From contig NZ_OZ245852.1 of the NCBI RefSeq assembly GCF_965228995.1, positions 2,205,493-2,269,492 on the forward strand: a DNA stretch of 64,000 bases. Direction: 5' to 3'. The position numbers and the translations under genes were made by a program. This stretch comes from Novosphingobium sp. (GTDB lineage: Bacteria > Pseudomonadota > Alphaproteobacteria > Sphingomonadales > Sphingomonadaceae). The notes under the pieces are model-generated. The model had not been told where the DNA came from. It ran no database searches and saw nothing but the letters and a program-made list of their open reading frames with translations. Numbering within the stretch: position 1 is the stretch's first letter; every line of letters starts with the position of its first letter. Positions 16,701 through 40,948 of this stretch are shown here, in pieces.

Positions 16701-19700
16701 CAGCCGGGGCAATTCACGACCAAGGTCGATGATCTCGTGACCTATGCGGTGGGCGTTGGCGAGACAGGCACGAACACCAGTTCCGACTCCCCGCTCCAGT
16801 ATGATCCGTCCACCCGCGGCGGCGCCTATTTCGTGACGAACGAAACCCGCACGATCACGCGTGAAGTCTCGGTGACCAATGGCACCCAGCTGGACGGTGT
16901 CGACGTCCGCTATGGTGCTGCGAGCCCGTGGAAGTATGGCAACGCGACCCAGCAGCCGCAGGGCGGAACCTTTGTCGATATATCGACGCAGGGTACCGAT
17001 CCAAGGCTGCTGGCCGCGCTAGGCGGCAGCACGCCGGACTTTGTCCAGATGGTCAGCGGCGTCGTTACCGACAAGATCAACGATACCACGCAATTCTCGG
17101 CCGCGCCTGGCCAGAACTATGACGAGAACTTCACCTGGGAGCTTCCCAAGACAATCAACGTCACGCTGACCACTGCGGTGCGCGCGACGTATCCGATCAA
17201 CATCCTGTTCGATCAGGGACACGGCCAGAGCGGGGTCAATGTCGTGTCCACGCAGGGCAGCGTCGTAGTCGGCGGGCGGATTACCTACGGCGGCGGCGAT
17301 GTTGCGATCACTTCGGCGCAGAGCATCCTCGGCACCCCGAGCGGGCTGGTTTACGCGCACGGCTTCCGTGGCTGTGCGAACTCGACCTCGCCTTCGAATT
17401 GCGAGTCCAATGGCCTGACCGGCTCGATCGGTTCGGCTGACCAGCCACTCGCCGTGACAGTCGCCGGCTCGACATTGGGCGATCCGGTTACAGGCCTCGG
17501 CAAGTCTCTGGGCGGAACCGTGAGCGCGCAGACGAGCAATGGCGATGTCTATCTGAAGCTCAATTCGTCGACCGCGACTGCAGGCGATCTTGATGCCGTG
17601 GTGCTTGCGGCCGTCGGCGCCAGCGGCAAGGTGGTCATCACTTCGGGCACAGGGCTGGTCGGGCTTGACGGGCTTGGCCCGAATATCGCGGCAAAGGAAA
17701 TCGATCTCACTTCCGCCGGATCGGTCGGCGGGTTCAATCCCTATTCGGGCAGTGGCAGCGATCCCCTGCTCAAACCCGCGCTCACCGTCGAGGTGGGCGA
17801 GGGCGGCCTGTGGATCAACGCGGGCGGTGATATCACCGTGCAGGGTGCGATGCACCACGATGCAACGGACCTTGCCAATGTTCTGCGGCTTGGTGCCATC
17901 GTATCGACCCGCGATGTGCAAATCCGCGCGCCCGGCTCAATCGTTGCGCTCGATACAACGACGATCGTCAACCAGGACAAGCTCGCGCGTTTCCTTGCAG
18001 CGGCACAGGCGCTCCAACTTGCGCCGAGCGCCAGTTGCAGCGGCGCGGCCTGCAGCGGGACCGATCCGGCGCGGCTCGCCTCGATCACCGACGCACTGCG
18101 CAATCAGGCCCGCACCGCCTATGACACGATCATTCGTTCGGCCGGCCTGCCCACCAGCGAGGCCACCGATATCGCGGCGCGGATCGACAAGCTCAACGCA
18201 CTTTCCGCGGCCGGCGTCGCCATCGGGCGGGACGGGACGCTCGTTTATGACCCGCTGAAGGATACCGGCAAGACGGCGGCGGCCTTTGCTGCCACGCTCA
18301 CCGGGCGCAGCGGACTCAGCACTGCCGACGTAACGAGTGCGCTGCAGACATATGCCAACAGCGTGATCGCGCTTGTCGGCACCCGCCTTCCAAACCTTTC
18401 GGGCAGCGCAGACAAGGCAGCGGCCATATCCGCACTGGTGCAGGCGCAGGGCCGGTCGGCGGCAGAGGCCGATGCGCTTGGCAAGCTGCAACTGGTCGAT
18501 CAGTTGCGCAGCCAGGGCGTCCAGATCGATGCGAGCGGCAAGGTCACGCTCTCAGCGACCGCCACGGTCGCACCGGGCAGCGCGCTCGCCGCTTTGGCGG
18601 TAAGTGCGCTGCAATCGCAGACCAACGCGCTCAAGCCCGCGGCTGGCGCGACTGCGATCACCCCCATTGCCCAGCCGACTCCGGCAGACGTCCAGCGCGG
18701 TCTTCAGGCCTACGTCGATAGCCTCACCACCAGAATAAAGCCGCTGCTTGGCGGTACGCTGCCCACGCTCGCCGGGATTTCGACCGATGCTGCGCAGCTT
18801 GCCTTCATCGACAGCAAGGTGAGCGCCGGCAGCTTCGCGGCCTACGCAGGCGCGCAGACCGCCGATGCGAAAGCCGTCCTGCTGCAGGAATTCGGTGCGC
18901 TTCCGCCTTCGCGCACGAGCATCGATACGCTGGCCTTTGCGCCGGCCTTCCTTGCCGCGCGCACCGACGGGGCGACCTGGCAGCAGACGCAGCTTGATTT
19001 CCAGGTACCCTCGACTGCGTTCGTCCCCGTCGCCGATACCCAGTTCGAGACGCGCAAGGCGGTCATCACCGCGCGCAGCCTTACATTGGTTGCTGGCAAT
19101 TCGATCGGCAACTTCGAGGCACCCAAAGCTTTCCGCTTTACCAGCGCGGGTCTAGTCGATGCGGCTGGCAAGCCGATCACCGATCCGCTTCAGAAGCAGC
19201 TTGCTGCGGCCTATCTCGCCTCTGCCGGACCCGGCGATCTTGTTGCCAGCGTCACCGGCTCGCCGGCCACGCAGGTCACCTTCATCAGCCGTCATGACCA
19301 GCCTTTGCCGCTCGACGTAAGCGGCGTGGTCAATGCCTTTGCCGCAACCAACTACGTCTCGCGCAGCACCACCTGGACCGCCGCTAATGCAGACCAGCTT
19401 TCGGGCGACATCTTCCTGACCGATGTCGGCACGATGACCATCGGCTCGATCGTCAGCCTCAAGCCGGTGACCGGTGCGCGGCGAAACGATTGCAACAGCA
19501 ATCCCGCCGTGCCGCTTTCGGGCTGCGATAGCCGCATCCGCCTTACCGCCAATGCCATCACCGGTGTGACCCAGGGTGCCGTGCAGCTTACTGGCCGAAC
19601 GTTCGTGAACGGCAGTCTGTCGCGCCAGAACGTCACGGACCCCGCTGGCCGTGCTGTGATCATGGGCGGGCTGATCCGGCTCGAAGCCTCGAACGGAAAT

Positions 19701-22019
19701 CTGCAATCGGCGGATGGCAGCGCGATCGGAGTTGATGCGCAGTCGCTCGAAGTGGTGCGTGCAGCGGGCAATGCGCTGCTGTTCAAGCGCGCACCGGCGA
19801 CCATTGGCTCAAGCGATTTCAGTGCAGGGCTGGCCTATATGAATGGCCAGGATCTCACTGTCGGCGATGTGTTTGCGGGCCGCACTTTCGCGCTCGACAA
19901 TCCCTTGGGCTCGCTGCTCGTGGGGGCGGTTCCCTACAGCCTTGCCAGCGAGAACCGCAACGGACGGATCGTTGCCGGGCTGGTGCGACTGCGCGCGGCG
20001 GGCGACATTGGCGGGACCGGGATCACCGCAGCGGGGCTGCCTGCGCGCTTTGACATCCAGACTCCGCAGCTCGACATTCTGGCCGCAGGGTATGACTTTG
20101 CTGCCGCGCCGACAGCCATGCCTGCGGCGACCTTCAGCTTCGATGGCGGCGGCCAGCATATCTTTACCGCGGCCGAGCTGCTCGGCACGGCGGTGATCAG
20201 TCCTGTGACGCCCGCCTACATCAAGATTACCCAGCTGCCGACCGGCGCCAGCCTTGTACTCAACGGGCCCGGCGGCTTGCGTTTCGTCAAGAACGGCTCT
20301 TCGATCCCGGTGTCCGCAATCTCGCAGCTGCAGTTCAATGGTTTCAGCGGATTGGGCACCCAGACGATCGGTTTCCAGCTTGTCCTGCCAGCAGGGGCCA
20401 TCGGCACCGGCCCCGCGCCCAATGGACAAGCTGGCGGCTCGGCCTGGCTCGATCTGCGCAGTCCGGTGCGGATTGGCGGCGGAACAAGCTCGCTCATCGG
20501 CGCGCGCGGCAGCATCGATATCGGCAAGGTTGGAGGCAGCACCGGGCTGGTCGATCTCGAAAGCCCGATCACGGTAGGCGGCACCGCCACTATCGTGACC
20601 GCTGGCCCCTTCGCCATCGGGCAAACGGTGACCGTGGGCGCGAGCGGTATTGCAACGCCGGCTTCCTGCGCCACCGATCCCGGCCCGGCAGCATGCCTGA
20701 TGGACTTGTCGAGGCTCAACCTCACCGTCGGCGGCGCGTTCAACTTCACCACCGGGCGCACTATCGAGTTCGGAGCGTTGGCTGCTGGCGGCGGCACCGT
20801 GGAATCGACCCAAGGCTCGATAACCATCGACCGGAGCCTCATCGGGAGCGCGAACGCTGCTGCGCCCTTCACGCTGAAGGGCAATACCGGCGTGTTCACC
20901 CACGACATTCTCGGCGGCGCACTTGCGCTTGTCTCGGCCAACGGCAACGTTGATGTCGCAGGCACGATGAAGGCCTCCTCGATCACGATGATGGGCAAGA
21001 CGACTGGTGTCGACGGCGCCATCGACACCAGCAACCTCGTGATCGTGGCAGACGGCGACGTGACGCTCGAGAGCACGGTCACGGCAGACTCGCTGCATGT
21101 GACCGCAACCGGCGATCTCGAACTTTCGCATTCGATCACATTGCGCTCGCCCCCGGGCCATACGGCCTCGGCGCTCGTTGCGGGCGGCGAGGTGGCGCTG
21201 GGCGACAATGTCGTGATCAGCGGAACTTCGGACAGCGTCCTCACGGTCACCGGCGCGAGCGTCGCATTCGCTCCGTCCTCGATTATCCGCGGGATCGATA
21301 CCCGGATCGTGGCGACAGAAGGCGGTGTGCGGCTCGGCACGATCGATGGCGGTGCGTTGGCGGTCCGCGCCCCGGGCGATATCGTGCTGGGAAGGCTCTT
21401 TGCGCGCGGTGCCTCGCTTGTCTCGCTAGACGGAAACATCGATTTTGGCGGTCCGGTGCAGATCGGAGGGCCGGGCGTCCATGCTGCGGCGCTGCGCACG
21501 GCAGCAGGGCTGGGCGCTGACGGAAGCCTTTACGCCCGCGCGCCGGGGTCGATCACGATCGAGGGACCGATGGCCGCAGCCGGAGGGATCACGCTTGCCG
21601 CTGGTTCGATCGTCACCACCGGAGAGGGCTATCTCAGCGATAACCTCAACGCCGGAATGCCGATCGTGCTGCGCGGTGACCGCATCGCAATCAGTTTCCG
21701 GGATCCCGCGCTGGGCGCGCAGCCGCTCAACCTCAATGTCGCCGGCTATACCGCGCCCGCAGCGAGATCGGCACGGTTCTTCTTCGACACGGCTCGCCCG
21801 ATCGATTTCACCACGCTCAAGGTCCTGAACGTGCGCGTCGATGCTGGTGGCACCGTTCGCTACGCCCCGTGGAGCGAGTGCAGCATGCTGCCTGTCGCGG
21901 CCGGTAGCTGGCTCGAAGTCTGGGGCGGGCCTGCAGGGCGCTGCGCCCAGCCACCTGCGCTGGACCCCGTTGAAGCCCGGCCGATCGCGCCGCAACCCTC
22001 CTCCCTTTCGCAGCGGTGA
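4761..22019 (+). CDS. giant two-partner-secretion exoprotein TpsA, filamentous-haemagglutinin-like, 5752 aa
   Basis: One uninterrupted 17.3 kb ORF. It has an extended signal peptide followed by a TPS (haemagglutination-activity) domain: NHFDHFNVNTGQSATLVLPKGTNNLVNLIRDASTINGSV...GNVFLVVPSGLIIGATGSIDTGRLIV. A very long Gly/Ala/Ser/Thr/Val-rich repetitive region (beta-helix-like) follows, then a less repetitive C-terminal third with paired cysteines. A TpsB gene lies immediately downstream. Confidence 0.9.
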   Translation: MTRGSSLHPRVHHLYARLMVGVSITATAALVPALARAQSIDVTASAGGPSSVALQSGGSAAVVTTSRVVDGTGFNHFDHFNVNTGQSATLVLPKGTNNLVNLIRDASTINGSVRSVLGAVGGQIGGNVFLVVPSGLIIGATGSIDTGRLIVRGSPGLYAGDEPTTANVFDGGRAASVVINGRISAPGGVDIHTASLTMGSSGQIETGAAALARIGNTLDLRNSLVSTQGLPSGQAIITTASGGIAIVADSVTLAGKIADNPATTANEAEPGALLDARPVASSPALVGGVTLQGPALNLGGQIIAWDGTASGPAGDITMTASDSETYGGLFAAQVPYFGMPKSNAGISIGGVIRGGTIAISASASSSTKLDDASKAVAALDTLAGKLSSVALGKLTGKAGLGIGAFVSLASANAAISVGAGASITAARDLSLTAGSAASSVSKASAKSGGTSAGGLAIAVSVAQTTSNAAITVGTASGGATLSAGGALTIGASSDPRADVRVRVASSGSAVAAAVAYNEVNSDAGVTVAKGSVLDGTAIGISAKTIQGDSGAGILTSATGSTYDTSPGGGVAAVTEETIRSHVNVAGTVGSARTATVAIAANTTTLFNKTSATTTAATGTDTSGTIPTSKASLTDLIGNLLRLSTDDPAKPKVGTIGTSANPASRATASVAVLQADESATAQITGSITATGKVSVGGVVSDKDVRNNAQASTAASLAVNGAATSVSGAAAWGTFTYTGTADIGGTVKAGSLSVSSLVDRPVGLVDNIGTLVDQAGTLNTPDNFNSILADLSFAKDVVATLPSILAPKSGLFGSYAGASGDSDSSGKAAIGGSIAYARIDSNSRAWIDPASQITIAGPQADASTIDAETNIALLSISGPKLFGTKSGGAAGGGAITYNTINPVTLAGIGDGAVFTAPDKALSVIANAAIDALTLAPVAGRGKSTTLSGAFAVNQIEGATRAVISNTARLAIGAGALRLSAATDEQVWTIAGTLAWNKADGSAGSSDTSVGIAGALNYVSLTTQATVGPAHDLFDPASPAVAAAASAGITSGNVSITAQTTGSINAISVAGVRDNSNAETTPDFLSNTNARFNKFKGAIGTGIVDFLTDMTTGLLASFGASTYSQQLKTNYASRKDAGTADAVTAGDQAAKPPAPTDGWGVAGSASVNLTALVTKVDIGLGRFTRSANATSASFLAKASERADTLAITGGAALANGVKYSGSSTLIAGAYGVTYSKNATTLTIDHSIIAGFDAISANAAMNGLRIGAGLALAADTTKTPDGRTFASSASLIIANDSVGANLTDDSVTGTGKGDVSVLAFDGRTLGAGAGGLSWGTQSGFGAALTVLIDKNASGTPTSALLARTPVAGFVNLSVQALDAARLVGIAAAGAITTGTGQGGNGLAASISFNDVALGTKALIDLGDNGVGSVNVTGALTVAAGEYAATNPSAQFARISCTINCDAGESLLSSFNIASTTFGADDPVQASDLPSGAAIISVAIPVAAARGSAGGLGLSVNLITNDRTAAIIGGAAATGSTIKAGSLALRTVDRATILSLAAGFAGSDNGSAVMGSLAYNQIGGTATASLTRSAGATKGPVVEIGSAGGPAAPASVTALADGRIYSLSGAIGSAKNAAGGLAVSVNAIARQGSGPAAGINALVSGVTLAGNPSLAVNAASTGTILSGAVAGALGTGNALGGSASTNAIAPTIAARADGLAYANAVTGDLAVTASDSASIRSLALAAALSTNQNSLGAGISVNRISTNVLASLTPASAISVRNLLVQSQSAATTQLVAVGLALAGKFGGAGSIAVNQTSAEADALLTLNGFNVNATGSVGVLATRDSAIDAAAGAAGFGAKSAVGAALVLNDVTGGAQALVSGTGGATVTALGQGDGLTVRTGDLTEALKQFDLPALVPESTGTTGASRAALGKLKPATTVVHGVAINANSTHATRTLAITGAIAGNGFAAAVTAVVGNVGGTTLAKASGIQFKVGNVAAAKPVAEPVALDIRAGTAIDTSSFAGAVAGSNGVGVGAPVVSDGLTAQTSALLSGGGVTTTGSVTVRAASRQAATALVLAGAVGGNVGAAVSGVSPRFAAVTTAAVDDPDTVSILGSGGLAINADSDSRGFATFGSLALGKAAGAATVVVVTDDDQTTARYKSAKRIAVTAPAISVSANGRFDARVAGGSVAAGVAGALVGNGVGVVNRQVIAAQASGLNYTNAAGKVSVTAAQIANFQPVIGQVAVTASLASGAGALGAVVVLSQAKVDATLIDPLVTAGTVSVNAYGASGVDALQLGFAGGLSGSIGANVTYIGIGEVADTGALFSKSGGNDANSQVAANAGSSGSGNGNLAMLGGGSGETTAQQAAAAGMDQLSGPASTHLVTGADGTRDATGALQTSSRDQFMQVGAVTSAPSADDGAASRVRAQVLSATAGQASQVKVGALSVVSSANLVSKSSNFQGAASLASGSAAIAITRNAANSIARIGAGVIAAGLAGSSTLDVRADTGQDASRLTGGITNPSKAAEALVVSGSVGALTANIGLADIKLQTVSLAESLGAVGFGTTTIKASDSSDAAANVYGVAAGATGALNVALANVTKQGTVGAQLAGKSFSAITRVIAAGGGSTSAYALAASGGYFFDGNAAVALATDQRTIDARVGEGTVVASNTLLVDASATPQISAQSDGIAVSGGLAMGGSVALATADATILARIGEGGRITCVTLLAPGCTLTVRAALLQPASGPNVLASARGSAGGALAAANASIATASDTADVAAIVGADLNGQPGAPTVLAGPSITISASRTLAQTARADGLTIAGLLSVGVQAAKARSSGTVDAALLNVDGSQQVLVDAVTGRPLVDASGAFVRNPDATVTASSLDLNTAITRAGAGALGAGVAADAATDSSGIVTTTIAPDAAFAFRAGKLTATATAAADYHAEADATQASVVGGSGSTTENSVNTTAHVVIGKAGKGSTPGTNSVLRASSFVIGAQNIVGQTGNDGGFSKGAGGGAATGAAAKVTNQVTQHAAVDVLAGTTLRQYGDASQNLLAMQINAGITTARSASTALQVGGVMLLPFARTDSTFNADSKVAIGTNALLRADGGIGIGTTAQQTIADSSAVQIYGLAGIGGGSSSTTANTSGLVTVGDGATIESLSDVLLTPGIGADGLSRDSISVSDQTDVFNQTVVPITVDHDAHATANLSNRLIVGKAVVRSARDVTFSALAQGVTATAVGTGHNPYLSIFSKSDSGGTADMATSGAIALNGSQITAGFLANRKIGITDTNDGGWQVVEADFDGTDKLTRTITADVSGSITGDTLTSGAGLTTAAPDRDRLGLAQFSSRTVSALDVVGQQITSLTAQVQAAGIVVPSDPNLLPAGDAHDSLASKLAAAAAQSALVAKLSAAFDTRAALTASGNTTTAGIMVDNLLAAGGSFAINTDSITGSGSRVVANASPTIAINSTSARNLLLGNLFIPAKPSGAVTYGGQAGETNLSTIATVQSSGIGDTVEGLIDVTNGAPFGGKSDLLVFGPIANVGGTFKALVNNGNFSQFGDVQVGKYDVTVPNGLFNVSTDGAFTKGVPINLYYGHVGLTLNDPQSSGCAGGSGEGCKANANDLSLFVQSAIAEQAVANYLVDHPVLTNGQPLTVGSGIDGLRSALKQLFNLSDAQVADPIRLLFEEGFVPAGSQQYYHVNSAGQLIAVATTFGIAKWGTANHSSGATIFASCSAVCEVESNDRDLSNGFSGQEFLFQTHSGETVRFNYPDNDGLGSYYSLGSAFVDPVITRQINANSQLGPGDNRTISANQVRINAKFVNISGSIVAGPEKQRSVDISARFTDATGMLIQDSMALDPNVHVGSVSAPLQLTNVATGNIGARYVVSGLVRNAQNQVISTTGYIQLDDVDAGAGGVIDITGRILNTNPLGGGELRVLDGFANISIINNAPVDLHLGTINAGTDVSGLIKLTDLKGDGSVETTQYRDVPGQGVTMSHVTSMPVAGQPGQFTTKVDDLVTYAVGVGETGTNTSSDSPLQYDPSTRGGAYFVTNETRTITREVSVTNGTQLDGVDVRYGAASPWKYGNATQQPQGGTFVDISTQGTDPRLLAALGGSTPDFVQMVSGVVTDKINDTTQFSAAPGQNYDENFTWELPKTINVTLTTAVRATYPINILFDQGHGQSGVNVVSTQGSVVVGGRITYGGGDVAITSAQSILGTPSGLVYAHGFRGCANSTSPSNCESNGLTGSIGSADQPLAVTVAGSTLGDPVTGLGKSLGGTVSAQTSNGDVYLKLNSSTATAGDLDAVVLAAVGASGKVVITSGTGLVGLDGLGPNIAAKEIDLTSAGSVGGFNPYSGSGSDPLLKPALTVEVGEGGLWINAGGDITVQGAMHHDATDLANVLRLGAIVSTRDVQIRAPGSIVALDTTTIVNQDKLARFLAAAQALQLAPSASCSGAACSGTDPARLASITDALRNQARTAYDTIIRSAGLPTSEATDIAARIDKLNALSAAGVAIGRDGTLVYDPLKDTGKTAAAFAATLTGRSGLSTADVTSALQTYANSVIALVGTRLPNLSGSADKAAAISALVQAQGRSAAEADALGKLQLVDQLRSQGVQIDASGKVTLSATATVAPGSALAALAVSALQSQTNALKPAAGATAITPIAQPTPADVQRGLQAYVDSLTTRIKPLLGGTLPTLAGISTDAAQLAFIDSKVSAGSFAAYAGAQTADAKAVLLQEFGALPPSRTSIDTLAFAPAFLAARTDGATWQQTQLDFQVPSTAFVPVADTQFETRKAVITARSLTLVAGNSIGNFEAPKAFRFTSAGLVDAAGKPITDPLQKQLAAAYLASAGPGDLVASVTGSPATQVTFISRHDQPLPLDVSGVVNAFAATNYVSRSTTWTAANADQLSGDIFLTDVGTMTIGSIVSLKPVTGARRNDCNSNPAVPLSGCDSRIRLTANAITGVTQGAVQLTGRTFVNGSLSRQNVTDPAGRAVIMGGLIRLEASNGNLQSADGSAIGVDAQSLEVVRAAGNALLFKRAPATIGSSDFSAGLAYMNGQDLTVGDVFAGRTFALDNPLGSLLVGAVPYSLASENRNGRIVAGLVRLRAAGDIGGTGITAAGLPARFDIQTPQLDILAAGYDFAAAPTAMPAATFSFDGGGQHIFTAAELLGTAVISPVTPAYIKITQLPTGASLVLNGPGGLRFVKNGSSIPVSAISQLQFNGFSGLGTQTIGFQLVLPAGAIGTGPAPNGQAGGSAWLDLRSPVRIGGGTSSLIGARGSIDIGKVGGSTGLVDLESPITVGGTATIVTAGPFAIGQTVTVGASGIATPASCATDPGPAACLMDLSRLNLTVGGAFNFTTGRTIEFGALAAGGGTVESTQGSITIDRSLIGSANAAAPFTLKGNTGVFTHDILGGALALVSANGNVDVAGTMKASSITMMGKTTGVDGAIDTSNLVIVADGDVTLESTVTADSLHVTATGDLELSHSITLRSPPGHTASALVAGGEVALGDNVVISGTSDSVLTVTGASVAFAPSSIIRGIDTRIVATEGGVRLGTIDGGALAVRAPGDIVLGRLFARGASLVSLDGNIDFGGPVQIGGPGVHAAALRTAAGLGADGSLYARAPGSITIEGPMAAAGGITLAAGSIVTTGEGYLSDNLNAGMPIVLRGDRIAISFRDPALGAQPLNLNVAGYTAPAARSARFFFDTARPIDFTTLKVLNVRVDAGGTVRYAPWSECSMLPVAAGSWLEVWGGPAGRCAQPPALDPVEARPIAPQPSSLSQR

Positions 22020-33170: not shown

Positions 33171-34001
33171 ATGAATTATCGCCATTCCTTCCATGCGGGC
33201 AATAGCGCCGACGTCGTGAAGCACAGCCTGCTGATCGCGCTCGTGCGGGCCTTGCAGCAGAAGCAGGGCGCGCTGACCCTGATCGACACCCATGCCGGTT
33301 GCGGTCTTTATGACCTTGGCGGCGAGGAGGCCCAGCGGACGGGCGAGTCCACGCAGGGCGTGCTGCAGGCGTTTGCTGACTCCAATCCCTTGCTCAACGA
33401 CTACCGCGCTGCAGTTCAGGCAGTGAATGCCGCGGATGAGCCGCGCTTCTACCCGGGCTCCCCTCGAATTCTCGCGCAGCTTCTGCGCCCGCATGATTTC
33501 CTGATCCTCAACGAAAAGCATCCCGAGGACGCCTCTGCCTTGCGGGGCGCGATGCGTGGCACACCCGCTGCGGTGCATGAGCGCGATGCCTACGAGTTTT
33601 GGCTGGCGCTGCTGCCGACCCGAACGCCGCGCGGTGTGGTGGTGGTAGACCCGCCATATGAGCAGCTGGACGAACGCGCCCGGATCACTGCCACGCTCGC
33701 CGCCGCTCACCGCAAATGGGCGCATGGCGTGACGGTGATCTGGTATCCGCTGAAAGACCGCGCCACGCACTCGCGGTGGAAGGAGCAGTTGCGGGCGCTT
33801 GGCATCCCGAAAATGCTGGGGGTCGAGCATTGGCTGTACGATGCCGATCAGCCCGGCATTTATAACGGCGCGGGCCTTTTTTTCGTCAATCCGCCCTACG
33901 CCTTCACGCAGGCACTGCCGCCTCTGCTGGAAGCCCTGCGTGCCGCACTGGCTCCGGAAGGGCATAGCGGCGAAATCACCGCCCATTGGTTGCGCGACTG
34001 A
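33171..34001 (+). CDS. rlmJ: 23S rRNA (adenine2030-N6)-methyltransferase RlmJ
   Basis: The N-terminus MNYRHSFHAGNSADVVKHSLL closely matches the conserved RlmJ start, and the size (276 aa) fits. Confidence 0.9.
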   Translation: MNYRHSFHAGNSADVVKHSLLIALVRALQQKQGALTLIDTHAGCGLYDLGGEEAQRTGESTQGVLQAFADSNPLLNDYRAAVQAVNAADEPRFYPGSPRILAQLLRPHDFLILNEKHPEDASALRGAMRGTPAAVHERDAYEFWLALLPTRTPRGVVVVDPPYEQLDERARITATLAAAHRKWAHGVTVIWYPLKDRATHSRWKEQLRALGIPKMLGVEHWLYDADQPGIYNGAGLFFVNPPYAFTQALPPLLEALRAALAPEGHSGEITAHWLRD

Positions 34002-34039
34002 CATTTCCTCCTCGCAGGTAGCGGCGGAGCTGCCACAGC

Positions 34040-34660
34040 AGGTGTGCGCATCGCTCTGGTAGCGAAGCCGCAACTTGATCGGCGATGCCACTGAGCGTTC
34101 GCAAGCTGAATTGTGGTTAAAGCACGACTTTGCCGGCCAGCGATGACAGAGCACTCTCGAAGATTTGAAGCGCGATAAAAGCTGGCCCAGTCTGATTTCG
34201 ATTATATTTCAGCGATGCTAACTGCGGTTATAGTATTGCTGGTAGGACAGCATTTACACTCAATGTCACTGATTTATATCAGGAATAATCATGCCGGTAG
34301 CGCTGCTGGTTAACGCTCAGTCTTAATCGCATCATGAAATTACGGCTATTCAATCGGCACGTAACGCGGAATACTCGTACCGCACTCAACGCTGATTCGT
34401 TTCAGCCGCGTAACGCGGTTCTGTTGGCAGGTGCCAATTGCGTGGTCGCAATGATCCAAGGGAGCGTCCGGCGAATTTTCGCTCTCCCTTTGATCATTCG
34501 AGAACCGAACCACCTAACTCCGTCGTCGTCGTCACGAGAATGATGTTCATTCCCGGTGTCCTCAATCCGATGCAGGCTTGGACTTATTCAAGACATGGGT
34601 CAGGCGATAAGTGCCTGAATGGCCGCAATGTACGACCCGAGAAACTTCACAAGGGAGATG
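34040..34660 (+). promoter_or_regulatory. long AT-rich non-coding leader upstream of the GH25 gene pair
   Basis: About 600 bp with no convincing ORF and visibly low GC. It carries a direct repeat CGTAACGCGG (34360..34369 and 34409..34418) and a terminator-like hairpin (34459..34495, AGGGAGCG-loop-CGCTCTCCCT then TTTGATCATT). Confidence 0.45.
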
Positions 34661-34663
34661 GAA

Positions 34664-35695
34664 ATGTCAGTCGGGATCCGCAGTTTGACAATGATGGCTG
34701 CATTTACACTTACCGCCGCGGCGCTGCCGGCAGTTGCGCAGGAGCCCGATACGGCACCTACCGACGCTGCCTCCCTTGGCCTGACCGAATTGACCGACGA
34801 CCTGTCCCGGCAGGAGCTCTTTGGAGAGATCCAGGCAGTGGACCGCCTGAGCGGTAATGTCGCGCGTGCCGATGCGGCGATCCAGAGCTTCAACCTCAAC
34901 GGCCCGTTCCGCTTCCCGGGCGATACCAAGTATGATTCGATGCTTGGTCAACCGCGCGTCAATTCGTTCTTCGGCGTGGATATCAGCCACTATACGAGCG
35001 CGTCCTTCCCGATCGAGCTCCTCAAGGCCCGCAATGTGCGGTTCCTGTACATGAAGGCAACTCAGGGCGCTGAGGGGCTTGATGGCAAGTTTGCCGGCTT
35101 CTGGAAGCGCACGGGTGCGCTGCCTGCGGGCAAGCAGGTCCATCGCGGCGCCTATCACTTTCTGTCCGCCTGCGAACACGGTGACTGCCATAGCGACCCC
35201 GTGAAATGGGGGAAACGGCAGGCTGACACCTTCATCAAGGTGGTCATGGCCAATGGCGGGCTCCTGCCGACGGACATGCCGCCAGTCGTCGACCTCGAAT
35301 GGGACAAGGCAAGCGCCAACGCGCCAGACCGCTGGGCCAGCCGTACTCCGCAGGAGATCGTGAAGGTCGTCGATGCATTCCTGATTGAAGTGAAGGAACA
35401 GCTCCACCGGACACCGATGATTTATACGGCGAATGCGTGGTGGAGCGGGCAGATGAAGAGCACGCCATTTTCGGCCACGATGAAAGCGTCGCCAATCTGG
35501 CTTGCGGACTATTCCAAATCCTCGCGGGCCAGCGAAAACCCTCGCTCGATTGGAACGGCCAAATGGGCGTTGTGGCAGTTCACCGAAAAGGGAGTGATGG
35601 CGACCGGTTTTACTGATGGCTTCGATGCGAATATCTACAAGGGATCGCTGCCCGCCCTCTATCAGACGCTTGGCGTGCGGGAGTTCGCACAATGA
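34664..35695 (+). CDS. secreted GH25-family muramidase (lysozyme)
   Basis: Signal peptide MSVGIRSLTMMAAFTLTAAALPAVAQ. GH25 motifs: FGVDISHYTS...FLYMKATQGAEGLDGKF...GAYHF...VVDLEWD...WALWQFTEKG...FDANIYKGS. RBS AAGGGAG upstream. The ORF track starts earlier, at 34619. Confidence 0.8.
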   Translation: MSVGIRSLTMMAAFTLTAAALPAVAQEPDTAPTDAASLGLTELTDDLSRQELFGEIQAVDRLSGNVARADAAIQSFNLNGPFRFPGDTKYDSMLGQPRVNSFFGVDISHYTSASFPIELLKARNVRFLYMKATQGAEGLDGKFAGFWKRTGALPAGKQVHRGAYHFLSACEHGDCHSDPVKWGKRQADTFIKVVMANGGLLPTDMPPVVDLEWDKASANAPDRWASRTPQEIVKVVDAFLIEVKEQLHRTPMIYTANAWWSGQMKSTPFSATMKASPIWLADYSKSSRASENPRSIGTAKWALWQFTEKGVMATGFTDGFDANIYKGSLPALYQTLGVREFAQ

Positions 35696-37794
35696 CGCCA
35701 GGCATGAGGCGGCTGTGGTGCATAGTCTCACCGGTGCTTGGGCTGTGCCTGGCGCTGCTCGCTCCGGCTGCCGCCCATGCGCAGCCGGTGCCACCGGCTT
35801 ATAGCGGCACCTGCCCCAACGGCGCGCCCGCGCGAGAGGAGCGTTATTGCCGGTTCATCGTGCATTACGACAACAGCGATCGGCCGCTACCCACCGAAGT
35901 TGGTGATTTCCTTGGCGTGACCCATTCCTCGGATACGCGAACGATCGGCTTCGTCATTGCCGTCGACGAATATCCGGGCCTGCCCGGCCACGACATTTCC
36001 GCAGCCAAAGTGGACGCGGCGAACCTGCAGGCGTTCTTGATGAGCCAGCAGTTCGACGAGATCATCATGCTGCGGAACGCCGACGCCTCCATCGACAATA
36101 TCAATTACTTTCTGACTGACTATCTGGTCAATCACGGCAACGACTATCGCGGGCCCGATGGAGATCAGCCGAAAGCCCGGCTGTTGATCGCCTATAGCGG
36201 GCATGGCCGCGCGCAGACTCCGGACGTGGACGCCGCCTTCATTCTCAATGCTGCGACCGATCCCAACGGTTCGAGCGGCGTGTACAAGATGACCGATTTT
36301 ACCGGCAATGTTTCGCACCTTGCCTCGCATTACTTCCATGTGCTGACGCTTGTGAATGCCTGCTTCGGGGGCAATCTTTTCGTCAATGGCAACCCCGGCG
36401 CAGCGGCCACACCCACCGGGCAGGGCTCCTTCATGATCACTGCCGGTTCGCCCAAGAACGAGGTGCAGGCACTGATTCCGGAGCGCGGCAGCCTGTTTTT
36501 TGATCTCGTGATCAACGGCGTGCTCAACGGCGATGCAGATAAGACGAGCGCGAGCTATTACCTTACGGACGGCAATACGACGACAAAGTCCCGGGAAATC
36601 CTGACGCTCAGCCTGCCCTTGTACAATTACCTGTCGGGTGCGTTCTTCAAGATCAACGCGGTCCAGAAGCATTCTGATCCCGGCTTCCGGTCATTGAGTC
36701 CGCCATTTTTTGGTCCCGTGCAGTCCGGCATGGCGCAGGGGGGCTTCTTCTTTGTAAGCACGGCGCCTGAACAACTTGCCGACAGTATGGGGCCATACCT
36801 CATACCGCTCGCACCGGGCGCGGTGGTCGAGACGGCCGGTATCACGCCGCAGCCCGTGTTTGCGCACCTGACGCACACCGCAAGCCCGCACCTGACGCAC
36901 ACTGCGAGCGCGCATCTGGCGAGCCCGGTAGTCATGCCGGCGCAGGCCATTTCGCATATCGAAGCTGCCGAGGTTGCGGCCCCGCCGCCGGTCAAGCCAG
37001 CACAACCTGAAGCAAAGCAGCTGCCCTTCGGCCCGATCAGCAGCATCAAGGGCCATCCCGACATCAAGATCTTCAAGCTGCCGGCCATCTACCCGATCAA
37101 GGGATATGACTTTTCCTCGGCGGACGGCAAAATCGACTGGGGCAAGTTCAAATCGAGCGCATTGCCCCGGTTCGTCTATCTGCGGGCCCTGGGCTGGGCA
37201 GGGCACGATCCGCGTTTCACTGCGAACTGGGCCAGCTCCGCCACAATTCCCGTCGACCGCGGCGTCTATCTGAAGTTCAACTTCTGCCAGACGGTAGCCG
37301 AGCAAGTCAGCCAACTGCGCCAATTGGCGCCGCCAGTTCCAAGCCTCCTGCCTGTCGGCATCGAACTTGTGACGCCGAGCGCCGATCAGGCCCGCGGCAC
37401 TGAACAACTAGCCTGCTATCAGAAACTGGGCGCAACGCATGTGGCGGCACTGGCCGAAGCACAGAAGCGGATTCTCGATCTGGCGGCATCGATCGAGACA
37501 CAATGGGGCAAAGTCCCCATCCTGTTCGGCAACAGCTACAATCTCTCAGTCCTGACCGATGCCCGTTCGGACCGCTATATGATCTGGCTGAATGCCTATG
37601 GCGATCCGGGCAAAATCGGCGAGAGAATGAAACTGCAAGGGCGCAACCCTTGGACAATGTGGCAATATTCAGGGACGCTCGATGTTGCCGGTGTGGGCTC
37701 CAGGACGACCGGCGAGGTCTTCTTTGGCACGCCTCAGCAATACGACGCATTTCGCAGCGGAAGTCACAACGTGGCGCTGAAGGCGGTTCAGTGA
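35692..37794 (+). CDS. secreted fusion protein: caspase-like peptidase C14 domain plus C-terminal GH25-like domain
   Basis: Signal peptide, then a caspase fold with an intact His-Cys dyad (RTIGFVIAVDEY...ARLLIAYSGHG...HVLTLVNACFGGN). A Pro/Ala linker carries an HLTHTAS tandem repeat. The C-terminal about 260 aa align to the GH25 protein next door (IKGYDFSSADGKIDWGKFK..RFVYLRALGWAGHDPRF..RGVYLKFNF...WTMWQYSGTLDVAG). The start overlaps the previous stop (ATGA). Confidence 0.7.
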   Translation: MTPGMRRLWCIVSPVLGLCLALLAPAAAHAQPVPPAYSGTCPNGAPAREERYCRFIVHYDNSDRPLPTEVGDFLGVTHSSDTRTIGFVIAVDEYPGLPGHDISAAKVDAANLQAFLMSQQFDEIIMLRNADASIDNINYFLTDYLVNHGNDYRGPDGDQPKARLLIAYSGHGRAQTPDVDAAFILNAATDPNGSSGVYKMTDFTGNVSHLASHYFHVLTLVNACFGGNLFVNGNPGAAATPTGQGSFMITAGSPKNEVQALIPERGSLFFDLVINGVLNGDADKTSASYYLTDGNTTTKSREILTLSLPLYNYLSGAFFKINAVQKHSDPGFRSLSPPFFGPVQSGMAQGGFFFVSTAPEQLADSMGPYLIPLAPGAVVETAGITPQPVFAHLTHTASPHLTHTASAHLASPVVMPAQAISHIEAAEVAAPPPVKPAQPEAKQLPFGPISSIKGHPDIKIFKLPAIYPIKGYDFSSADGKIDWGKFKSSALPRFVYLRALGWAGHDPRFTANWASSATIPVDRGVYLKFNFCQTVAEQVSQLRQLAPPVPSLLPVGIELVTPSADQARGTEQLACYQKLGATHVAALAEAQKRILDLAASIETQWGKVPILFGNSYNLSVLTDARSDRYMIWLNAYGDPGKIGERMKLQGRNPWTMWQYSGTLDVAGVGSRTTGEVFFGTPQQYDAFRSGSHNVALKAVQ

Positions 37795-37865
37795 TCAAGT
37801 TTGGCGGGGCGATCGATCACGCCATATCCAGCGTGCTCTTGACGGCAGTAAGGATTGCCGAGACC

Positions 37866-37894
37866 GCCAATGGCGCGGCAACTGCGCCATTGGC
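37866..37894 (+). other. perfect 11-bp inverted repeat hairpin GCCAATGGCGC-ggcaact-GCGCCATTGGC
   Basis: Located 70 nt after the stop of the fusion gene. No T-tract follows. Confidence 0.4.
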
Positions 37895-37990
37895 AGCGGC
37901 CTAGCAATTTGCACAAGTGGACTAGCTCGGGCTTGTGGAGGAGTTTGCTTCCCAAGGCGCCTCCTGAGTGCCGAATGAGGAAGCTTCGCA

Positions 37991-38770
37991 ATGCCTTACC
38001 AGCCCTTCGACCTTGGCGGGAAAGTAGCGCTCGTGACCGGAGTGAACGGCGGCATCGGCCTCGGCATGGCGGAGGCGCTTGCGCAGGCGGGGGCGTCCGT
38101 GATCATATGGGGAACCAACCCGGCGAAGAATGCTGCTGCCATGAGCAGGCTGGAGGCGGCCGGGCAGCGCATTGCCAGCGAGATCGTGGACGTTTCGGAC
38201 GAGCATGCGGTGCGCGCAGCCATGGAAAAGGCCGTCGCCGAATTTGGCCGGGTTGATACGGTGATTGCCAATGCCGGGGTTGGCGGTGGTTCTTTGTTTG
38301 CCGAGTTTCCGACCGAGCAATGGCGCAAGGTCATGGCGGTCAATCTCGACGGCGTATTCTTCACATTGCGCGAGGCATGCAAGCACATGCAGGCGCGCGC
38401 CGAAGCGGGCGATCCGGGCGGGTCGCTGATCGCGATCTCGTCGACCTCGGCCATTCACGGCGCGGCGCGCAATCAGGCCTATGGCGCGGCCAAGGGGGCA
38501 CTGTGTTCGCTGGTCCGTGCGACAGCGGTCGAGTTTGCTCGCTACGGCGTGCGCGCCAACGCGGTTCTTCCGGGCTGGACGGTGAGCGAAATGACCGAGG
38601 CCGCGCAAGCGAACGAGAAGTTCAACCGGCAAGTGATTTCCCGCGTGCCGTTCAGGCAGTGGATCGAGCCTGAGGATTTCGGCGGGATTGCGGTCTACCT
38701 CGCCTCCGATGCATCGCGGTTCCACACCGGAGACAGCTTGGTGCTCGATGGCGGGTACACGATTTTCTGA
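37991..38770 (+). CDS. short-chain dehydrogenase/reductase (SDR), full length
   Basis: GKVALVTGVNGGIGLG Rossmann motif, NAG motif (VIANAGVGGG) and S...YxxxK (SSTSAIHGAARNQAYGAAKGA). Confidence 0.9.
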   Translation: MPYQPFDLGGKVALVTGVNGGIGLGMAEALAQAGASVIIWGTNPAKNAAAMSRLEAAGQRIASEIVDVSDEHAVRAAMEKAVAEFGRVDTVIANAGVGGGSLFAEFPTEQWRKVMAVNLDGVFFTLREACKHMQARAEAGDPGGSLIAISSTSAIHGAARNQAYGAAKGALCSLVRATAVEFARYGVRANAVLPGWTVSEMTEAAQANEKFNRQVISRVPFRQWIEPEDFGGIAVYLASDASRFHTGDSLVLDGGYTIF

Positions 38771-39797: not shown

Positions 39798-40696
39798 TCA
39801 GAGGTAGAGTCTCGCTCCTTCATGATGGGTGTTTGAGGGGATGGCAACGTGTCTGGGGGCATGCCCCCAGACACGTTGGCCGGCGATCTCGGCGGGGGTC
39901 TTCCCGCCCAGTTTGGAGTGTGGCCTGACCGTATTGTAATCGTGCCGCCAGGCAGCGAGCACGAACCGGGCATGAGCTAGCGAGGTAAACAGCGTCTCGT
40001 TGAGACATTCGTCGCGCAGGCGCCCGTTGAAGCTCTCGACGAAGCCGTTCTGCATCGGCTTGCCCGGCGCGATGTAGTGCCACTCGACCCGGCGCTCCTG
40101 CGACCAGCGCAGGATGGCCGACGAGGTCAGCTCGGTGCCATTGTCGCTGACCACCGTATGCGGCTTCCCCCGGATGCCCATCAGGCCGGTCAGTTCCCGG
40201 GCCACCCGTGCACCCGACAGTGATGTATCGGCCACCAGCGCCAGGCACTCGCGTGTGTAGTCATCGACCACGCACAGGATGCGGAAGCGCCGACCGCAGA
40301 TCAGGCTGTCAGAGACGAAGTCGAGCGACCAGCGCTGGTTCGGGCCATCGGGCAACACCATTGGCCTGCGTGTGCCCAGAGCGCGCTTGCGCCCGCCACG
40401 ACGGCGCACGCGCAGCCCTTCCTCCCGGTAGATGCGCAGCAGCTTCTTGTGATTGGGTGCGATGCCCTCCCGCGCCAGCAGATAGCCCAGGCGGCGATAG
40501 CCGAACCGGCGACGCTCCGCCGCCAGCTCGCGCAACCGTTGCCGCAGCGTGCCGTCATCCGGCCGTGTCGGCTCGTAACGGATCACCCTGCGGCTCACGC
40601 CAACCAATGCACACGCCCGACGCTCGCTCACCCCGTGATGCTCCCGGGCATGGGCGACGGCTTCCCGCTTGGCGCCGGGCGTTACCATTTTTTTGA
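39798..40696 (-). CDS. IS3-family transposase OrfB (integrase core, DDE), made as an OrfAB fusion by -1 frameshift
   Basis: rve-type catalytic core (...[23 protein letters not shown]...[42 protein letters not shown]). The frame is entered at the AAAAAAA site near 40690. Confidence 0.85.
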
Positions 40697-40948
40697 TGCC
40701 AGATCCTTCAACACGGCATTGTCGAGCATCGCCTCGGCCAAGAGCTTCTTCAGCCGGGAGTTCTCCTCCTCGAGCGTTCGCAACCGCCGGGCCTCGGACA
40801 CCTCCAGCCCGCCGAACTTCGACTTCCACTTGTAGAACGTCGCCGAGCTGATCCCGTGGCGGCGGCAAACCTCCGCCGTCGGCAATCCGCCCTCCTGCTC
40901 CTTCAAGATCGCTATGATCTGCTCTTCGTTGAACCTGCTTCGCTTCAT
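40682..40948 (-). CDS. IS3-family transposase OrfA (HTH)
   Basis: [63 protein letters not shown] is the IS3/IS911 OrfA signature. It ends ...AAAAAAATGGTAA, the slippery site. Confidence 0.85.

Follow-up and report, generated by a model that had tools for sequence, protein, structure and literature searches.

Caspase homologues are numerous in bacteria. A substrate or role is known for very few of them, and their discussion has centred on intracellular cell death. The bacterial C14 caspase homologues (orthocaspases) share a catalytic His-then-Cys dyad and a plan in which an N-terminal protease is combined with an interchangeable recognition domain. A 2012 survey already noted metacaspase fusions to peptidoglycan-binding and Amidase_2 domains (PMC3501461); its main text does not mention a partner domain derived from GH25. 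Characterised orthocaspases such as MaOC1 are described as cytoplasmic (PMC7935541). Here we describe a two-gene cassette in a 64-kb stretch of Novosphingobium sp. DNA (contig NZ_OZ245852.1; hereafter the window). It consists of open reading frame A (ORF A), a GH25 muramidase gene, and ORF B, which shares the dyad and the domain plan of the orthocaspases and has a GH25-derived domain as its C-terminal partner. Unlike the orthocaspases, ORF B has a putative signal sequence and probable disulfides, and a separate GH25 gene always stands upstream of it. It also carries Asn instead of Asp two residues before the catalytic Cys and is too divergent for a direct match to the Pfam family PF00656 (Peptidase_C14).

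Several cell-wall systems offer further comparisons. The streptococcal phage lysins B30/PlyGBS combine CHAP and GH25 domains and are bifunctional peptidoglycan hydrolases. Like ORF B, such lysins join a cysteine peptidase to GH25 through a linker, in one polypeptide aimed at the cell wall. However, the ORF B peptidase belongs to clan CD (caspase fold) and not to the papain-like CHAP or NlpC/P60 type, its N-domain has no phage relatives, the protein is chromosomal, Gram-negative and predicted to be Sec-exported, and the fused GH25 of its family is mostly non-canonical. The dLytM factors EnvC and NlpD are catalytically dead LytM domains that activate the amidases AmiA/B/C in E. coli. There, as in the C-domain of ORF B, a fold has remained under selection after catalytic loss and is genetically tied to an active wall hydrolase; the ORF B domain, however, is a GH25 barrel and not LytM, it is fused to a protease, and activation would be hypothetical here. 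Csp proteases activate pro-SleC in clostridial spores, and a cysteine protease matures prolysostaphin. These systems resemble the cassette in coupling a protease to a wall hydrolase with an N-terminal extension, but the protease there is subtilisin-like, whereas the hosts of the cassette are non-sporulating Gram-negative bacteria in which cleavage would be hypothetical. Finally, compared with GH25 muramidases of the Chalaropsis type (cellosyl 1jfx, BaGH25c 2wag, SleM 5jip), ORF A has an extra conserved N-terminal extension of ~75 residues, and neither the catalytic Asp-x-Glu nor four further conserved polar residues are present in the C-domain of ORF B.

The building blocks of the cassette are familiar ones, and databases already list the proteins, with generic names. 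In the full-text literature we found no paper describing a caspase- or metacaspase-GH25 architecture. The preliminary description of the locus, made by reading the sequence, had likewise known of no characterised example, although at least 77 full-length fusion clusters are already present in public data.

Our preferred reading, to which we give an even chance, is that the cassette is a self-contained, laterally mobile two-gene operon for an exported cell-wall-lytic module. ORF A would cut the glycan strands of peptidoglycan, the C-domain of ORF B would dock the peptidase on these strands or on ORF A itself, and the peptidase would cut a peptide or protein component at the wall. The favoured candidate substrates would be proteins or stem peptides attached to peptidoglycan and, after these, the N-terminal extension of ORF A (zymogen activation). 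The interchangeable recognition domains of C14 relatives fit such a logic of a protease carrying a targeting domain. Such a module might serve to attack competitors or to remodel the wall of the producer. In a narrower version, the caspase-fold domain would be a peptidoglycan-directed peptidase on a pseudo-muramidase dock, cutting stem peptides, cross-links or sacculus-tethered proteins while the GH25 enzyme cuts the glycan; we consider this version unlikely, though not far-fetched.

ORF A reads as the canonical, intact GH25 muramidase that was first proposed, because it scores well against Pfam Glyco_hydro_25 (86.6 bits, cutoff 27) and keeps all catalytic residues. D106 (beta1), D210-L-E212 and D321 (beta8) align to the catalytic residues of cellosyl and SleM and are invariant among 75 homologues. 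Among solved structures, SleM, cellosyl and fungal muramidases are its nearest relatives in sequence, SleM being the nearest in the PDB. It is accepted for GH25 that the Asp and Glu of the D-x-E motif carry out catalysis (PMC7954357).

The extension of ORF A, which lies between the signal-like N-terminus and the barrel and is not covered by Pfam, is conserved in every partner gene found upstream of a fusion. A variable, gap-rich stretch divides it into two conserved blocks, LGLxxLTDDLSRQxLF and FNLxGPFRFPxDxxYD...PR. Four residues (L52, F82, D87, R98) do not vary, and 71 of the 75 sequences have R49. In the structure model, the predicted local distance difference test (pLDDT) exceeds 90 at residues ~31–40 and ~81–90 and is low in the variable helical part between them. 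These features bring up an alternative, namely that ORF A is a latent pro-muramidase whose extension is removed by ORF B, the GH25-like domain recruiting the peptidase to its partner or to the wall. The invariant Arg98 and the near-invariant Arg49 flank the variable, low-confidence segment, the two genes are strictly co-inherited and translationally coupled, and the closest PDB relative, SleM, is a spore cortex-lytic enzyme. Latency would also account for the producer's survival with a muramidase in its periplasm and no immunity gene. However, the high-confidence parts of the extension may be a structural part of the enzyme and not a propeptide, the P1 specificity of the peptidase is not predictable, and activation alone would leave unexplained why the protease carries a highly conserved GH25-derived domain. 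We regard protease activation as unlikely.

The N-domain of ORF B has a caspase fold, clan CD and C14-like, an assignment made through the predicted fold and the homologues. The preliminary description had recognised this domain from the motifs LLIAYSGHG (His171) and LVNACFGG (Cys224), and neither residue varies among the 77 full-length fusions or among 73 distant relatives. In the structure model, LLIAYSGH171G follows strand 133–139 and VLTLVNAC224 follows strand 186–192 (N-domain numbering), which places the dyad at the ends of consecutive hydrophobic strands, after beta3 and beta4, with a Gly next to the His. A His and then a Cys at the ends of consecutive hydrophobic strands is the arrangement of clan CD. 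The HMMER check that had been proposed gave a divided answer: ORF B itself has no match to PF00656 even at E ≤ 1, but homologues at 38–47% identity pass the cutoff of 21.4 bits (P0001, 30.5 bits; P0003, 32.2 bits), and 61 of the 73 distant relatives match the family (best E 2.4e-21). Profiles built from the close family, one of them from four close homologues, retrieved no caspase from the PDB, and a broad N-domain profile reached the yeast metacaspase Yca1 (4f6o) weakly, with an E value of 0.008.

HMMER searches against 1.84 billion cluster representatives returned 4042 N-domain relatives, 262 of them at E ≤ 1e-30. In the wider N-domain family the protease is joined to interchangeable C-terminal modules (FGE-sulfatase, Sel1, PG_binding_1, PDZ, TPR, WD40, GH25); sequence relatives with E values near 1e-40 belong to Pfam Peptidase_C14 and have FGE-sulfatase, Sel1, PG_binding_1, PDZ or WD40 as the fused domain. 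Taken together with the fusions of the 2012 survey, this interchange suggests that the C-domain of ORF B serves recognition or targeting. GH25 domains themselves are common in phage lysins, and a phage origin of the protease domain was also considered. It was rejected for want of phage relatives: tblastn of the N-domain against 50,697 phage records gave no match, and its fold matches in BFVD were giant-virus caspases only.

The dyad is accompanied by further conserved residues. Asp108, in the helix after beta1, is invariant, and the position two before the catalytic Cys is Asn222 in ORF B and Asn in 75 of the 77 sequences. Arg/Lys-specific metacaspases and orthocaspases have Asp at this position, which belongs to their acidic S1 pocket. 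With Asn in its place, the cleavage specificity of ORF B would not be predictable.

Peptidase and C-domain are connected by a Pro/Ala/Ser-rich linker (P 15%, A 12.5%, S 12%), in line with the Pro/Ala linker first described. Across the family this linker varies between 14 and 135 residues, with a mean pairwise identity of 0.17. A 24-nt tandem duplication (36863–36910) within the ORF B linker encodes HLTHTAS(P/A) twice, and given the range of lengths it is consistent with a fast-evolving, length-variable segment.

The C-domain of ORF B matches PF01183 (GH25) over residues 473–668 (36.7 bits, cutoff 27), and its best PDB relative is the Bacillus anthracis GH25 enzyme 2wag (E 1.6e-8). The preliminary description had allowed for an N-domain off the caspase fold, for example some other His/Cys hydrolase, or a C-domain outside GH25; neither departure was found. 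Its claim that the C-domain aligns along its length to ORF A holds at the level of profiles, where hhalign matched the C-domains with altered active sites to the ORF A family over 214 columns (98.4% probability, E 7e-15, 20% identity). BLASTP, however, aligned the two sequences in short segments only (27% identity over 67 residues, E 2e-4). An identity this low over only 67 residues rules out a recent tandem duplication of both GH25 domains.

Despite the shared fold, the catalytic site of the C-domain is extensively altered. In the alignment to 2wag, 'gielv' stands opposite 'vidve', so that the Asp is replaced by Glu558 and the general-acid Glu by Val560; the beta1 Asp is kept as Asp473, and the beta8 Asp is replaced by Thr673. 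The hhalign map, in ORF A family numbering, shows D106, D140, Q186, W279, W304 and Q305 as kept, and K131 to R, Q134 to G, H165 to L, D210 to E, E212 to V, D214 to P, D282 to A, D321 to T and N323 to E as replaced. The earlier picture of a protease paired with peptidoglycan hydrolases therefore stands for the intact ORF A but probably not for the fused domain, which has no D-x-E.

A census of the 77 fusions separated two clades. An intact D-x-E, together with a D-x-N on beta8, is found in 13 sequences, and in 57 the Glu position holds Val or Ile. Where the motif formerly had Asp, 48 of the 77 have Glu and nine have Leu, among them the Escherichia marmotae and Atlantibacter proteins, in which this position has no acid; in Escherichia marmotae the motif is L-L-V and contains no acid at all. 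Within the altered clade, the mean pairwise identity is 0.54 for the GH25-like domain, 0.51 for the C14 core and 0.17 for the linker, and Cys532 and Cys575 of the GH25-like domain are invariant. Because it is as conserved as the protease core, the altered domain appears to be under strong constraint and not decaying. With the D-x-E and other active-site residues lost, it is probably not a second muramidase but a constrained, non-catalytic wall-binding module.

The altered domain could, alternatively, still be a glycosidase that uses another acid pair, for instance Asp473 (beta1) and Glu675 (beta8). ORF B would then be a peptidase-muramidase comparable to the CHAP+GH25 phage lysins, and the operon would have three catalytic activities. 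Position 675 indeed covaries with the motif, being Asn where D-x-E is intact and Glu or Asp in 53 of the 57 altered sequences, and 70 of the 77 sequences retain Asp473; the strong constraint on the domain fits as well, and the ~13 fusions with a canonical site imply that the ancestral protein was probably catalytic. However, of the roughly nine polar residues that do not vary in the active site of the ORF A family, six have been exchanged, some of them for hydrophobic or small residues, and we know of no precedent for such a rewiring in GH25. The general-acid Glu of D-x-E is moreover regarded as catalytic across the family (PMC7954357). On balance we judge a rewired glycosidase to be distinctly unlikely.

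The two genes are strictly paired. In every locus for which upstream sequence is available (14/14: the window, L001, L002, the P0001 contig, L004–L008 and L010–L014), a GH25 gene of the ORF A type lies directly upstream of the fusion, on the same strand. The stop codon of the partner often overlaps the start of the fusion, and the arrangement seen in the window recurs in L004–L007 and L014. The last of these, a Duganella locus, was found from the partner gene and again contains the fusion. In the window, coordinates and Pfam matches confirm the two genes overlapping by ATGA between rlmJ and a short-chain dehydrogenase (SDR) gene that had first been noted; the ATG of ORF B is preceded by GGGAG 8 nt upstream. 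We also considered a division of labour in which the stand-alone GH25 gene occurs only beside degenerate fusions. This was rejected, since partners also stand beside fusions with an intact D-x-E (L008, L010, L012).

Obligate pairing with an active enzyme of the same fold, in all 14 loci, also bears on whether the altered domain binds ORF A and not the wall. Such a domain, a hydrolase fold that lacks its catalytic residues yet is strongly constrained, might switch ORF A on allosterically, in the way that EnvC and NlpD act on their amidases, and the caspase-like domain might regulate this by self-cleavage. The interaction between ORF A and ORF B is purely hypothetical, however, and the same pairing in the clade with an intact D-x-E makes the pairing older than the degeneration. 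We therefore rate an activator of this kind as very unlikely. Protease activation of the lysozyme, a rewired site and an activator are not mutually exclusive with the wall-lytic module that we prefer.

In three metagenomic contigs the fusion is broken (L001, 9118–11161; L002, 2771–4459; the P0001 contig). One of them has overlapping ORFs of 308 and 386 residues, an apparent frameshift, and the other two have the C14 domain and the linker plus GH25-like domain as separate genes, the latter lacking a signal sequence of its own in L002. Sequencing errors, pseudogenes or truly split forms of the protein could account for them.

The fusion family is widespread but patchy. A search with a single sequence gave four matches and a profile search 91, ~80 of which are C14-GH25 fusions of 600–770 residues. 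An extreme rarity of the family was thus rejected as an artefact of the word index, the HMMER count of N-domain relatives pointing the same way. Fusions occur in Alphaproteobacteria (Novosphingobium, Sphingomonas, Lichenihabitans, Mesorhizobium, Rhizobium), Betaproteobacteria (Burkholderia, Caballeronia, Ralstonia, Achromobacter) and Gammaproteobacteria (Nevskia, Dyella, Atlantibacter, Escherichia marmotae). Where they have a database name, it is 'GH25 family lysozyme', 'lysozyme' or 'caspase family protein'. The nearest relatives of ORF B include one from Nevskia (68% identity), ahead of Novosphingobium capsulatum (62%). Among 185,579 species genomes, a pattern scan picked up only four loci. 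None of 5,426 complete E. coli genomes has the E. marmotae version of the cassette.

The flanking genes are different at every locus, and no conserved third gene, such as one for an immunity protein, was found across the cassette loci. In rhizobia the cassette is carried on megaplasmids, and at one metagenomic locus it follows a phage-type integrase. In Novosphingobium capsulatum (L013; CP140000.1, 815–14082) it lies between an IS3-type transposase and a MobA/TraI relaxase, a setting that points to carriage by an integrative or conjugative element. After the cassette come two small ORFs and another, third GH25 gene (385 residues, 9177–10334), possible extra components of the module in some hosts. 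The preliminary description had proposed a horizontally acquired islet, mainly from composition. Lateral mobility of the cassette is supported by its taxonomy-incongruent distribution, the different flanks and the mobile-element contexts, and these are better evidence than composition; the codon-position evidence is weak. In the window there are no notable flanking direct repeats or other insertion scars, and the nearest mobile element is an IS3-family-like transposase 2 kb downstream of the cassette (39798–40948, minus strand), with an 88-residue helix-turn-helix part followed by a 356-residue integrase-like part.

Two further neighbourhoods are of note. In Escherichia marmotae (L011, 3262–11016) the cassette adjoins genes with MR_MLE, Peptidase_M14 and SBP_bac_5 domains, before an MscS-type channel gene. 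The Pfam domains of these neighbours resemble the murein-peptide recycling cluster of E. coli, and the genes may be ycjG, mpaA, mppA and ynaI. In Rhizobium ruizarguesonis (L008, 1–13055) the neighbours include secreted-type proteases (Peptidase_S8, Trypsin_2) and a 1200-residue TPR-CHAT protein; CHAT is another caspase-fold family.

Both proteins are predicted, from sequence pattern and Cys pairs, to be exported to the periplasm or beyond. They begin with a basic-hydrophobic-AxA segment, and the N-termini look like signal peptides by eye (MSVGIRSLTMMAAFTLTAAALPAVAQ/EP in ORF A and MTPGMRRLWCIVSPVLGLCLALLAPAAAHA/QP in ORF B). ORF B has two near-invariant Cys pairs, and Cys41 and Cys53, just past the signal-like segment, are conserved in 76 of the 77 sequences. 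The signal peptides first assigned to both genes are therefore plausible, but a crude hydropathy test was not discriminating, as it also passed the cytoplasmic RlmJ.

The same features speak against an intracellular suicide or defence orthocaspase, that is, a cytoplasmic death effector that lyses the cell through the lysozymes upon phage infection or stress. Signal-like N-termini and conserved Cys pairs mark the ORF A/ORF B set, no sensor or NTPase domain is present, and the neighbours, besides changing from locus to locus, are not defence genes. Neither protein matches a PADLOC model at E ≤ 0.01, and membership in a defence system was rejected on this ground. We consider such an effector extremely unlikely.

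Several points weigh against the wall-lytic module that we prefer. The whole proposal is built on sequences and models, and the signal peptides were read by eye. No clan CD enzyme is known to act on peptidoglycan. The missing PF00656 match of ORF B itself and the Asn before its catalytic Cys count on the same side. The ~13 of 77 fusions with an intact D-x-E would mean that a purely binding C-domain is neither ancestral nor universal, and the conserved Glu/Asp675 together with the kept Asp473 leave room for a rewired site in the altered clade. Finally, an active periplasmic muramidase without an evident immunity partner would need some mechanism of control.

We also examined the composition of the locus and its possible transcript signals. 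The AT-rich leader of about 600 bp that had been described is there: the 617 bp from 34002 to 34618 have a GC content of 0.514, against 0.649 for the window, and the GC content of ORF A and ORF B is 0.60. The composition dip at the cassette is real, but the argument for horizontal transfer from A/T-rich third codon positions is weak. GC at third positions is indeed low in both genes (ORF A 0.733, ORF B 0.732; window median 0.775, standard deviation 0.041), yet this is only about one standard deviation under the median, several other genes of the window are equally low, and the GC deficit of the two genes lies mainly in first codon positions. The leader has no Rfam match (the best was glmS, E 0.43), and promoter and terminator scans found no sigma-70-like promoter above chance and no consensus terminator in it.

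A 19-nt inverted repeat (33995–34013 with 34655–34673; 17 of 19 positions complementary, 13 nt perfect) brackets the leader. One arm lies over the rlmJ stop codon and the other over the Shine-Dalgarno sequence and start codon of ORF A, so that the repeat could mask the ribosome-binding site of ORF A in read-through transcripts. By a rough estimate, ~0.1 matches as good are expected by chance in the region, and the repeat may be a chance one. About 65–75 nt past the ORF B stop, a hairpin with 13 consecutive predicted base pairs has a folding energy of −31.4 kcal/mol (z = −3.7), and none of 200 shuffled sequences folded as well. It has no U-tract and was not called by the consensus terminator scan; it is a possible 3' end of the transcript.

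The coordinates of the features are collected in the table. The longest ORF for ORF A begins at 34619, and this 358-residue form is on record as WP_421846425.1 ('GH25 family lysozyme [Novosphingobium sp.]'). The ATG at 34664 is preceded by GGGAG 6 nt upstream, and the 343-residue product is identical to the public gene call P0224; 34664 is thus probably the true start. The exact ORF B sequence, from either candidate start, was not found on record in public collections.

Table. Features of the cassette and its flanks in the window (positions counted from the first nucleotide of the window; a slash marks the predicted signal-peptide cleavage site).
Feature	Coordinates	Strand	Remarks
rlmJ (RlmJ methyltransferase gene)	33171-34001		Left flank of cassette; Pfam RsmJ 184.5 bits
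AT-rich leader, rlmJ stop to ORF A start	34002-34663	+	GC about 0.51
ORF A, predicted exported GH25 muramidase, 343 aa	34664-35695	+	Longest ORF from 34619, 358 aa
ORF A predicted Sec signal peptide, aa 1-26, ...LPAVAQ/EP	34664-34741	+	Sequence pattern only
ORF A conserved N-terminal extension, aa 27-100	34742-34963	+	Outside Pfam GH25
ORF A putative GH25 catalytic barrel, aa 101-343; Asp106, Asp210-Leu-Glu212, Asp321	34964-35692	+	
ORF B, predicted exported C14-like peptidase + linker + GH25-like domain, 700 aa	35692-37794	+	
ORF B predicted Sec signal peptide, aa 1-30, ...AAAHA/QP	35692-35781	+	Sequence pattern only
ORF B predicted caspase-fold peptidase domain (clan CD, C14-like)	35782-36771	+	His171 codon 36202-36204, Cys224 codon 36361-36363
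ORF B Pro/Ala/Ser-rich flexible linker, aa ~361-444	36772-37023	+	
ORF B GH25-like domain, remodelled active site, aa 445-700	37024-37791	+	E558-L-V560 = 37363-37371
Stem-loop 3' of ORF B	37857-37900	+	RNA fold
SDR gene	37991-38770		Right flank of cassette

Farther from the cassette, the window holds a single ORF of 5752 residues (4761–22019, plus strand) that is probably a giant FHA/CdiA-like exoprotein. Its N-terminus resembles the two-partner-secretion (TPS) domain with a score just below the cutoff (30.4 versus 33.5 bits). The metagenomic locus L001 likewise has a TPS/ESPR exoprotein ~9 kb from its cassette, which may be a coincidence.

Three features of these proteins were not apparent from existing annotations: that the two genes are strictly paired in an operon, that a domain which Pfam overlooks in many members has the caspase fold, and that the fused GH25 site has been remodelled in a conserved way. 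Whereas discussion of bacterial caspase homologues has centred on death inside the cell, the members of the C14-GH25 family are predicted to be exported, are tied to a putative wall-recognising domain and are genetically locked to an apparently active lysozyme, which would give them an assayable job at the cell wall. The two clades, with intact and with remodelled GH25 sites, offer a natural experiment on how glycoside hydrolases become binding or regulatory pseudo-enzymes. Tractable bacteria are among the hosts (Escherichia marmotae, Achromobacter, Ralstonia, Rhizobium, Novosphingobium), which makes genetics feasible, and if the pair is bacteriolytic it may be of interest for enzybiotic research. 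Should the caspase-fold domain prove to be a peptidoglycan-directed peptidase, clan CD would gain its first enzyme with the bacterial cell wall as target, and a bacterial caspase homologue from outside the cytoplasm would for the first time have a defined biochemical role. The family may thus open a route to the role of bacterial caspase relatives outside the cell.

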